From the IMG/VR virus record IMGVR_UViG_3300008113_000099, positions 1-54,814 of that record: 54,814 nucleotides of DNA, one strand, 5' to 3'. Of this stretch, positions 692-40,683 are shown one piece after another. The DNA is from a virus (taxonomy: Duplodnaviria > Caudoviricetes). Every line of letters begins with the position of its first letter. Position 1 is the stretch's first letter. A model generated the notes under the pieces. That model saw nothing but the letters and a program-made list of their open reading frames with translations, searched no databases and was not told the DNA's origin. Position numbers and translations under genes: made by a program.

Positions 692-803
692 CCTATAGTA
701 CTGCCCAGCCCGAAGGCTGGGCAGCAGTAACTAGTCTTCCATCCCAAGGTACCTACAAGCACGTTGGCCAGGACCAGAGCTGTGGCTCATCCACAAACTA
801 TGG
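692..803 (-). ncRNA. Candidate structured RNA (four-way junction, UUCG-capped hairpin)
   Basis: Manual fold: P1 CCAUAGU/ACUAU(A)GG; P2 UGUGG/CCACA; P3 CUGGUC/GACUAG enclosing CCAA/UUGG and GUGCU/GGUAC; P4 CUGCCCAGCC-UUCG-GGCUGGGCAG; TATAAT at 811-816 upstream. Confidence 0.55.
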
Positions 804-3050: not shown

Positions 3051-3609
3051 CTTCGCTCACATTCCTAAGACTTGTTACATTATTTTGCTCAGCAACAATT
3101 ACTTCTTCAACCTGATTAGATATTTGAGACAGCCTACGCATAATTTCATTTCTTACCTGTGGATATTCTGCAGATATATCCTTAAGTATTCCAATAAGTA
3201 TGTCTTGCTTTCTTTCTGTTTCCGCCAAATGGCTGGCAAGTTCTGCGTTGTCTAGTAATCCTAGTTGCTGAAGCATTGCAATTCTTTTTTGCTCAATATC
3301 CGCAATAAGCTTTAATGTACTAGCCTTAACATTTAGTTGTCCTGCCTGATCTGCGTCGTCTACAGTCTTCCACGCCTCTTTAATAAGCATTGCGTAATGT
3401 TGATCTGCACCAGCTACTGCTTCTTTTGCACGATCTCTTGCACTTGAATCATCACGAACAACAGCTTTCCACTCTTCAATTAAGTCAAGGACATCCTTGC
3501 GTGGTATGGATAGTGTCTTTGATATTTGTGTAGCGCTATTGCCCATCAGCATTTGTTCTACAACTTTGTTCATACGGTCAAAACGCTCTGCTAATTCTAT
3601 TTCAGACAT
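3040..3609 (-). CDS. HTH plus helical protein, putative terminase small subunit
   Basis: N-terminal HTH (SATQISKTLSIPRKDV), coiled-coil body, directly upstream of and overlapping TerL. Confidence 0.6.
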   Translation of the reverse strand: MSEIELAERFDRMNKVVEQMLMGNSATQISKTLSIPRKDVLDLIEEWKAVVRDDSSARDRAKEAVAGADQHYAMLIKEAWKTVDDADQAGQLNVKASTLKLIADIEQKRIAMLQQLGLLDNAELASHLAETERKQDILIGILKDISAEYPQVRNEIMRRLSQISNQVEEVIVAEQNNVTSLRNVSEDVV

Positions 3610-3630
3610 GCTATCTCCTGTTCTATATAA

Positions 3631-3659
3631 AGTATACTCTTGGTCAACTAAAATGTCAA
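3631..3659 (-). promoter_or_regulatory. Sigma70/SigA-type promoter for the terminase operon
   Basis: TTGACA-17 nt-TATACT, then RBS ACAGGAGA. Confidence 0.8.
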
Positions 3660-3676
3660 AGCTAATTAACTAGGAT

Positions 3677-4354
3677 TTATGCCTTAATACAACATTCATA
3701 TGGTGTGGAGCTATTTAAAAACTCTTCTGAGTGATATGGACCAAGCTCTACAATTGCAGCACGACATGACTTAAGTGGTCTTTCTAATGTGTCCCAGATC
3801 TTTTCTTCATGACCTTCTACATCCATTTTAATAATGTCTATTTCATCAATTGTAACATCATCAATAATATTGTTTATATTATCAAGCATTACTGGAAGGC
3901 TTGTCATTCCATCTATTGTACTATTTTCATCTGTTATTCCAGCTCCGCCAATATTAGTATTTGGAACTAAAATAAAGGCCTCTTTTGTTTCATCGGACAG
4001 ACCAATATCAAATAGGTTGATTGCTCCTGTAGACTCATAGTCATTATCTGACTCTAGTATAGTTTTTTCATAAACATTAACAAGTTCTTTGTTTGCCTCA
4101 AATGAGAAAACTCTTCCGTATGGACCAGTGGCTCTAGCCATGATCTCTGTAAAATAACCAATATTCATTCCTATGTCCAGGCACGTATCAGTTTCTTGTA
4201 CATTCTTTATTAGCCAATTTGTTGTCTCTGGCTCCCAGAATCCAAGCTTCTGAATGTTTCCGCCAACGTGTTCGTCTCCATCAACGACATATAGACTAAA
4301 GCCATAATTGGTTTTAGCCATAGTTATTGGGTAGATAGTTTCTACCTTTTCCAC
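3677..4354 (-). CDS. FkbM-family SAM-dependent methyltransferase (C-terminus possibly frameshifted or truncated)
   Basis: LDIGMNIGYF, VFSFEAN, IIKMDVEGHE motifs; start moved to GTG 4354 because 4342-4503 is a separate gene. Confidence 0.8.
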   Translation of the reverse strand: MEKVETIYPITMAKTNYGFSLYVVDGDEHVGGNIQKLGFWEPETTNWLIKNVQETDTCLDIGMNIGYFTEIMARATGPYGRVFSFEANKELVNVYEKTILESDNDYESTGAINLFDIGLSDETKEAFILVPNTNIGGAGITDENSTIDGMTSLPVMLDNINNIIDDVTIDEIDIIKMDVEGHEEKIWDTLERPLKSCRAAIVELGPYHSEEFLNSSTPYECCIKA

Positions 4355-11948: not shown

Positions 11949-11974
11949 TATAGGGGGGCTTTCGCCCCCCTATA
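11949..11974 (-). terminator. GC-rich hairpin after the SSB gene, probable terminator
   Basis: TATAGGGGGGC-GAAA-GCCCCCCTATA, 11-bp perfect stem, no long U tract. Confidence 0.65.
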
Positions 11975-36620: not shown

Positions 36621-36648
36621 AAATGGCCCCTACGAATAGGGGCCATTT
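36621..36648 (-). terminator. Intrinsic terminator after the major tail gene
   Basis: AAATGGCCCCTA-TTCG-TAGGGGCCATTT followed by CTTGTCTT. Confidence 0.8.
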
Positions 36649-40575: not shown

Positions 40576-40628
40576 TTATTTCTCCGTTTCTTTGTTTTAA
40601 TTATAGCATTTTACGGACTATAAAGGAA

Positions 40629-40656
40629 AAGGGCCCCCTTAAAGAAAGGGGCCCTT
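40629..40656 (-). terminator. Intrinsic terminator after the capsid gene
   Basis: AAGGGCCCCTT-TCTTT-AAGGGGGCCCTT followed by TTCCTTT. Confidence 0.8.
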
Positions 40657-40683
40657 CTCACACTTTGTTGTCCTAATTTATAA

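Follow-up and report, generated by a model that had tools for sequence, protein, structure and literature searches.

The gap between two small genes, p33 and p109, at the left end of the phage record IMGVR_UViG_3300008113_000099 (estimated completeness 45%) raises the question of whether it holds an RNA with a role of its own, and of how such an RNA would fold and act. The window analysed here is the whole stretch of 54,814 nt. A preliminary description had proposed a structured RNA on the minus strand, and the comparison of variants bears this out: the element is a folded RNA encoded on that strand and conserved in a narrow group of uncultured freshwater phages. The fold and the switch that had been proposed for it are wrong.

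The left-end genes of the window all lie on the minus strand (Table 1). The consensus order of the element is TATAAT, 7 nt, P1, P2, single-stranded AGUUAC, P3, 15-21 nt and the AUG of p109. P1 (32 nt) and P2 (about 35 nt) are directly adjacent, and the same P1 hairpin is predicted independently in each of the five variants folded, out of 13 known. AGUUAC is unpaired in the consensus and in every single-sequence fold; the ribosome-binding site of p109 is likewise unpaired in the consensus. The distance from P3 to the AUG stays within 15-21 nt in all 13 variants (in variant L003 it was read by eye). The loop of P3 is UUCG in the window and GNRA in most relatives, a switch suggesting that this loop matters for stability and not for a specific contact.

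Table 1. Positions of the RNA element, its parts and the surrounding features in the window
Feature	Position	Strand	Remarks
Large terminase	3050-1272	minus	
p84, 84-aa ORF	1275-1021	minus	
Candidate sigma-70-like promoter, TAGACA, 17 nt, TAGAAT	1018-1046	minus	10/12 consensus matches; directly ahead of tRNA-Met
tRNA-Met, anticodon CAU	1009-935	minus	ARAGORN; Rfam tRNA 73.6 bits
p33, 33-aa lysine-rich ORF	918-817	minus	ORF list; AAGGAG ribosome-binding site; TAG stop abuts TATAAT
TATAAT, candidate -10	811-816	minus	identical in 13/13 variants; 7 nt ahead of P1
RNA element	810-692	minus	between p33 and p109
P1, 5' hairpin	773-804	minus	invariant ACCA/UGGU base, variable tip and loop
P2, interrupted hairpin, nearly invariant (CCUGGCCAACGUGCUUGUAGGUACCUUGGGAUGGA)	738-772	minus	pairwise identity 0.968
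Single-stranded linker with AGUUAC (732-727)	727-737	minus	AGUUAC invariant in 13/13 variants
P3, 12-13 bp G+C-rich tetraloop hairpin	699-726	minus	7/13 pairs changed on both sides
Unpaired tail with ribosome-binding site GGGAAGG (693-687) of p109	684-698	minus	read from sequence
p109, acidic 109-aa ORF	683-354	minus	ORF list; always directly downstream of the element
HNH endonuclease	370-32	minus	
Further G+C-rich tetraloop hairpins	11949-11974, 36621-36648, 40626-40659		loops GAAA/UUUC, UUCG, CUUU
RNA-library contig X1	681-982		
RNA-library contig X2	658-1053		
RNA-library contig X4	731-925		

The hairpins are supported by substitutions among the 13 variants. Standard pairs fill 95.8% of cells in the model-fitted alignment, which leans to the model; an alignment made with MAFFT has the same substitutions. 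Ten pairs are changed on both sides, three at the tip of P1, seven in P3 and none in P2. None of 500 shuffles reaches these values, and slid controls are 33-47% paired. The ACCA/UGGU base of P1 is paired in all variants and never varies; in the middle of P1, inconsistent gap placement in that alignment makes the pair count uninformative. The preliminary description had reasoned that the element would be only a terminator if covariation were confined to the UUCG hairpin, and the three compensated pairs at the tip of P1 lie beyond that hairpin. No compensatory change occurs in P2 among the 13 variants, and its predicted pairing is supported only by energy calculations together with a hairpin substitution in two variants, L007 and L113, whose P2 tip is swapped for another small hairpin. 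A hairpin at this tip is thus supported, since a replacement hairpin stands in the same place.

Sequence conservation is distributed differently from covariation. Mean pairwise identity over 11 variants is 0.968 in P2, 0.824 in the coding sequence of p33, 0.748 in P3 and 0.741 in P1, while the tail past P3 has an identity of 0.436 and no invariant column. The leader, the loops and the tail vary, yet TATAAT, ACCA/UGGU and AGUUAC are invariant throughout. Invariant G-U pairs exist on the minus strand only, examples being alignment columns 90-118 in 13/13 variants and columns 52-63 in 11/13; for this reason, and because the neighbouring genes are also on the minus strand, the RNA strand is taken to be minus.

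Several further kinds of constraint were considered for the element and rejected. A pseudoknot or other long-range pairing was sought by scanning all alignment columns against each other, which gave scattered single columns tracking the family tree and no run of adjacent pairs. By inspection, AGUUAC has no conserved pairing with the leader, the tail, the P2 loop or the start region of p33. Short open reading frames overlap the element in the window, but none of them is conserved across variants, whose frames are offset by indels in P1 and the P3 loop.

Folding energy gives a narrower picture than covariation does. The 112 nt that had been described as folding almost entirely on the minus strand do beat their shuffles (-49.9 kcal/mol, z = -3.44, none of 200 reaching this energy), but this signal is essentially one hairpin; the plus strand of the same 112 nt reaches -40.7 kcal/mol (z = -2.83). 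Once the UUCG hairpin is taken away, the 77-83 nt that are left show no advantage over their shuffles, with z between -0.36 and -1.05 in all five variants tested (of 13), and the excess folding energy therefore lies almost entirely in P3. The individual parts named in the preliminary description are all present in the sequence, among them the UGUGG-AUGAG-CCACA hairpin and the CCAA/UUGG and GUGCU/GGUAC helices on the minus strand, the C(UUCG)G hairpin, one of whose 12 pairs is a G-U, the GGGAAGG site ahead of the ATG at 683, and a TATAAT (816-811) 7 nt before the CCAUAG at 803. The CUGGUC/GACUAG helix fares less well, with three outer pairs kept and the rest lost in relatives, and it competes with the invariant base of P1. 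In the minimum-energy fold these parts form three tandem hairpins and no four-way junction, the 5' CCA pairing with a UGG just past the first hairpin.

Viral contigs with the element number 25. In metagenomes it is found at 13 loci, several of them on the same contigs as in IMG/VR, and both sets together give the 13 distinct variants. Each of the three records searched holds one copy. A covariance model built from seven sequences finds the element in 6 of 80 loci collected by terminase similarity, all six at 82-100% terminase identity; the 74 loci at 66-73% terminase identity have no element by this model (best 14.3 bits, E 0.13). Pattern scans returned 31 matches in viral contigs, 25 of them model-positive, and 13 metagenome loci, all model-positive, and a third pattern added no new members (24/24 contigs already in the set). 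A three-motif pattern had no match in 185,579 species genomes, and a looser one gave at least 120 stretches there, of which 80 loci were examined and none was model-positive (one 11.8-bit match). An origin from host sequence is rejected, as neither of these species-genome scans yielded a cellular homologue, with 80 loci examined for the looser one. One metagenome contig of 219,447 bp carries two identical copies about 105 kb apart (L115, L122); two copies of the genome were probably assembled head to tail here, given that a complete relative is 107,950 bp long.

That complete relative has a WhiB-family gene scoring above the Pfam cut-off, and the large terminase of the window matches a terminase of a Streptomyces phage. 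WhiB is a marker of phages of Actinobacteria, and the two observations together suggest an actinobacterial host, so that the hosts are probably freshwater Actinobacteria. On the plus strand at 935-1009, antisense to the tRNA, the Rfam Plastid-ycf2 model scores 54.2 bits (cut-off 65.7), which looks like an artefact of a model resembling an antisense tRNA.

The preliminary description had found no likeness to several known RNA classes, and the searches agree with it. At Rfam 15 gathering scores the whole window matches the tRNA family only. At E<=10, searches of 451 nt and 136 nt around the element return nothing except generic matches to P3, the best having 18.6 bits against a cut-off of 35 and lying on the opposite strand, and variant L113 has no match. 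A Ro60/Y RNA system was also considered and rejected: neither the complete relative (G001) nor a second record (G002) has a TROVE match, and there is no Rfam match to Y RNA or YrlA. The element is of the same kind, and comes from the same data source, as the 8,495 unnamed candidate structured RNAs (csRNAs) of Fremin et al. (2023) from IMG/VR, many of which lie directly upstream of genes or hold terminators (PMC10690425). The main text of that study names no candidate in the gene context of the element, and its supplementary tables may hold an earlier listing. A limited, keyword-based literature search returned no description, and the element is apparently undescribed so far.

Gene order indicates how the element came to lie before p109. 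Both p84 and p109 are present at 44 of the terminase loci, six of which bear the element, always with tRNA-Met, p33 and the RNA between the two genes. The other 38 have tRNA-Met between p84 and p109 in 33 cases and no tRNA in five, and in 22 of the 38 the tRNA stands alone in a gap of 77-107 nt from p84 to p109. Since wider relatives have tRNA-Met alone at this place, p33, TATAAT and the RNA (about 245 nt) were inserted as one piece between the tRNA and p109. The immediate upstream neighbour of the element is p33 in 11/13 variants. In L007 (about 3600-3810) and L113 (20-197), a 59-aa open reading frame with two CxxC pairs, resembling a zinc ribbon, sits between p33 and TATAAT; its TAA stop lies inside TATAAT, and the spacing from TATAAT to P1 is still 7 nt. 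The RNA thus travels with p109, whose junction with it is constant, whereas the junction with p33 can be split by an extra gene.

The p33 family (MANKEQKG...; MANKEQKGNANKKKEPK[LM][ST]LKEKR...) is lysine-rich, very conserved and present in at least 120 viral contigs. An intact reading frame of 33-36 aa occurs in 68 of 70 new loci (L252-L321), and p33 relatives usually overlap the start of the next gene. None of the 70 has the element (one 12.3-bit match, E 0.41) or an upstream tRNA-like motif, and p33 is rejected as a dedicated partner of the RNA on account of this wide occurrence apart from it. Relatives of p109 are found in 71 loci by tblastn. Neither protein belongs to a Pfam or PHROG family, and tblastn of both against cultured phages gives no match.

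With 12 pairs, eight of them G-C, and a tetraloop, P3 has the stem-loop of an intrinsic terminator. The U-rich tract is missing: at least five U in the 8 nt past the stem occur in one of 13 variants, the window has two, and a terminator scan does not list P3. The AUG of p109 follows within 15-21 nt, too short a space for p109 to have a separate promoter, and its expression therefore requires transcription through P3. Given this spacing and the absence of a U-tract in 12/13 variants, P3 fits the description of a stabiliser or leaky stop better than that of a canonical terminator. Four strong hairpins occur in the 54.8 kb, all with tetraloops and all in short gaps between co-directional minus-strand genes; the three others probably serve as intergenic stabilisers or terminators. 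Hairpins of the extra-stable C(UUCG)G and GNRA types between genes of a phage were first noted in T4. P3 is like them in being a G+C-rich UUCG/GNRA stem between co-directional genes, but the likeness describes P3 only and leaves P1, the invariant P2 and AGUUAC unexplained.

Two candidate promoters precede the element. The TAGACA and TAGAAT hexamers ahead of tRNA-Met align in the 10 variants (of 13) that have upstream sequence, and would, judged by sequence, be the upstream transcription signal of a unit of tRNA, p33 and element. For TATAAT, a consensus promoter scan finds no -35 partner; promoters of Actinobacteria often have no -35 element. The word GTATAAT was considered as a phage-wide promoter word and rejected, being found 11 times in the window against 11.1 expected. 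Contigs from three RNA-library runs of three studies span p33 and the element; they record presence in RNA libraries and are not a transcript map. RNA ends cannot be read from such contigs, and DNA may be among their sources. No contig from the four RNA-library runs covers p109. Contig ends and missing cover are not used as evidence, because the ends match the edges of the ultra-conserved block, where mixed-strain assemblies break.

The reading that we tentatively prefer, at somewhat short of even chances, is that of a structured RNA, either a promoter-proximal leader or an intercistronic segment, in which an invariant core of P2 and AGUUAC would bind a conserved partner. The element would be the 5' leader of a p109-HNH transcript started at TATAAT, and longer transcripts reading through from the tRNA-Met/p33 unit would contain it as well. 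P1, forming the extreme 5' end of an RNA started at TATAAT, would protect that end, and P3 would serve as an extra-stable intergenic hairpin, either an RNA stabiliser or a leaky terminator. P2 and AGUUAC may form a sequence-specific docking site for the partner, most likely a protein, which would set the fate of the transcript through its stability, read-through or the translation of p109. Such a reading agrees with the position of TATAAT at a constant 7 nt from P1 in all variants, even behind the 59-aa reading frame, with the higher identity of P2 than of the adjacent coding sequence, and with the resemblance of P3, lacking a U-tract in nearly all variants, to the three other intergenic hairpins of the phage. 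It also agrees with the comparison of relatives with flanks of 55-75% identity, in which the element is 91-100% identical, as is the tRNA, with the paired and compensated structure on the minus strand, with the constant junction to p109, and with the presence of the stretch in RNA libraries.

Other observations weigh against the leader. The candidate -10 has no -35 by the scan, and its word is no commoner in the window than expected; compensatory changes are absent from P2, and P1-P2 alone fold no better than shuffles. As wider relatives have only the tRNA before p109, this gene can generally do without the leader. A riboswitch or attenuator was looked for by inspection: no conserved helix competes with P3 or the ribosome-binding site (the best is 5 bp, UUGGG with CCCAG), and no alternative pairing links P1-P2 to either, so no switch is visible. 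Among the closest relatives, runs of 96-100% identity extend over about 800 nt, beyond the element alone, and may reflect recent exchange.

The element could instead be a stand-alone, trans-acting small RNA of about 112-120 nt, started at TATAAT or cut from the tRNA-p33 transcript, ending at P3 and acting through P2 and AGUUAC on a target in the host or the phage. Such an RNA would account for a candidate -10 placed 7 nt before a 5'-terminal hairpin, for the very stable 3' hairpin, and for the invariant single-stranded hexamer between hairpins, which resembles a seed region. Its arrival within an inserted piece of p33 and RNA that wider relatives do not have also favours this reading. A further parallel is the position in a tRNA transcription unit, shared with T4 rnaC (species 1, 139 nt) and rnaD (species 2, 119 nt, both as annotated in NC_000866), phage RNAs of similar size that are oriented with tRNA genes in the same transcription region; unlike there, a protein gene separates the tRNA from the element here. 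The model has no match on rnaC or rnaD (L361 2909-3172) in an 8-kb region of T4, its best match of 6.7 bits lying elsewhere. We nevertheless judge a stand-alone small RNA unlikely: 12 of the 13 variants have no U-tract past P3, the ribosome-binding site of p109 follows P3 within a few nucleotides and leaves no promoter room, so that transcription has to continue, and the RNA stays joined to p109 when an extra gene enters upstream.

It is improbable that the element consists of plain stabiliser or terminator hairpins in which the identity of P2 merely records a recent horizontal spread of the tRNA-p33-RNA block. The concentration of all excess folding energy in P3, the narrowness of a family of 13 variants and the extension of near-identity over about 800 nt in the closest relatives would suit such a spread, as would the few synonymous differences in p33 between certain variants that share only about 50-60% identity in their flanking proteins. 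Within the one set of variants, however, P1 and P3 changed often and with compensation and the coding sequence of p33 fell to its lower identity, while P2 stayed as it is, and the three short motifs remained invariant in all variants as the leader, loops and tail varied.

An analogy with the put RNAs (putL and putR) of phage HK022, cis-acting RNA antiterminators of a lambdoid phage that bind the beta' zinc-binding domain of RNA polymerase and suppress termination, suggests another reading, which we consider very improbable: nascent P1-P2 would bind the host RNA polymerase and, by RNA alone, allow read-through of P3 and later hairpins into p109, the HNH gene and beyond. In the published account, putL is an RNA of about 70 nt with two bulged stem-loops starting just past its promoter (PMC9378689). 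The layout of the element parallels it, with two adjacent stem-loops, P1 and P2, of about 66-72 nt in total, beginning 7 nt past TATAAT, and with a strong hairpin 11-13 nt further on that must be read through, here in order to express p109, as in the phage RNA of that account (PMC9378689). Contact with an invariant polymerase surface would also explain why P2 is frozen. The likeness is one of layout only, and two adjacent hairpins are a generic shape. Run against the whole HK022 genome with filters off, the element model finds no credible match (best 19.5 bits, antisense in the protease gene), and between the IS903 element and gene O it finds a single match of 4.7 bits. Unlike HK022, whose host is E. 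coli, the phages with the element probably infect actinobacteria; the element is single-copy and lies past the terminase gene, not in an immunity region; and nothing like the element lies upstream of the three other intergenic hairpins of the phage.

A translational switch in the form of a four-way junction, with the p109 ribosome-binding site concealed by the closing helix, is scarcely tenable: in the window CCAUAGU can pair with ACUAU-A-GG, the 3' strand of which touches GGGAAGG, but the comparative sequence data contradict this model, as the end-to-end helix is 63.7% paired over the 13 variants with four of its seven pairs broken in 5-8 variants each, the junction is not the minimum-energy fold even in the window, and the tail is the least conserved part of all.

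An invariant 35-nt hairpin and hexamer beside freely covarying hairpins suggest that the partner is a specific one, with RNA polymerase, a ribonuclease and the ribosome as candidates. A non-coding phage RNA with a frozen core offers a rare way into the question of how phages handle host machinery. Freshwater Actinobacteria are an abundant group, and to our knowledge almost nothing is known of phage gene control in them. Should the element prove to be no more than a leader or stabiliser, it adds modestly to an already large stock of unnamed phage RNA motifs. If the parallel with put held, phages would have two unrelated lineages of RNA for processive antitermination without protein, and RNA-only antitermination would have arisen more than once.

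Some minor observations concern tRNAs. A display of a Met codon in the manner of a T-box was considered for P1 and rejected, an AUG being present in its loop in just 8/13 variants. In the window, the P1 loop AUGAG (783-787) is exactly complementary to CUCAU (972-976) in the anticodon loop of tRNA-Met, both on the minus strand. In the complete relative, about 2.5 kb past the HNH gene (L088 13089-13351), the translations of open reading frames resemble those of a tRNA gene cluster.
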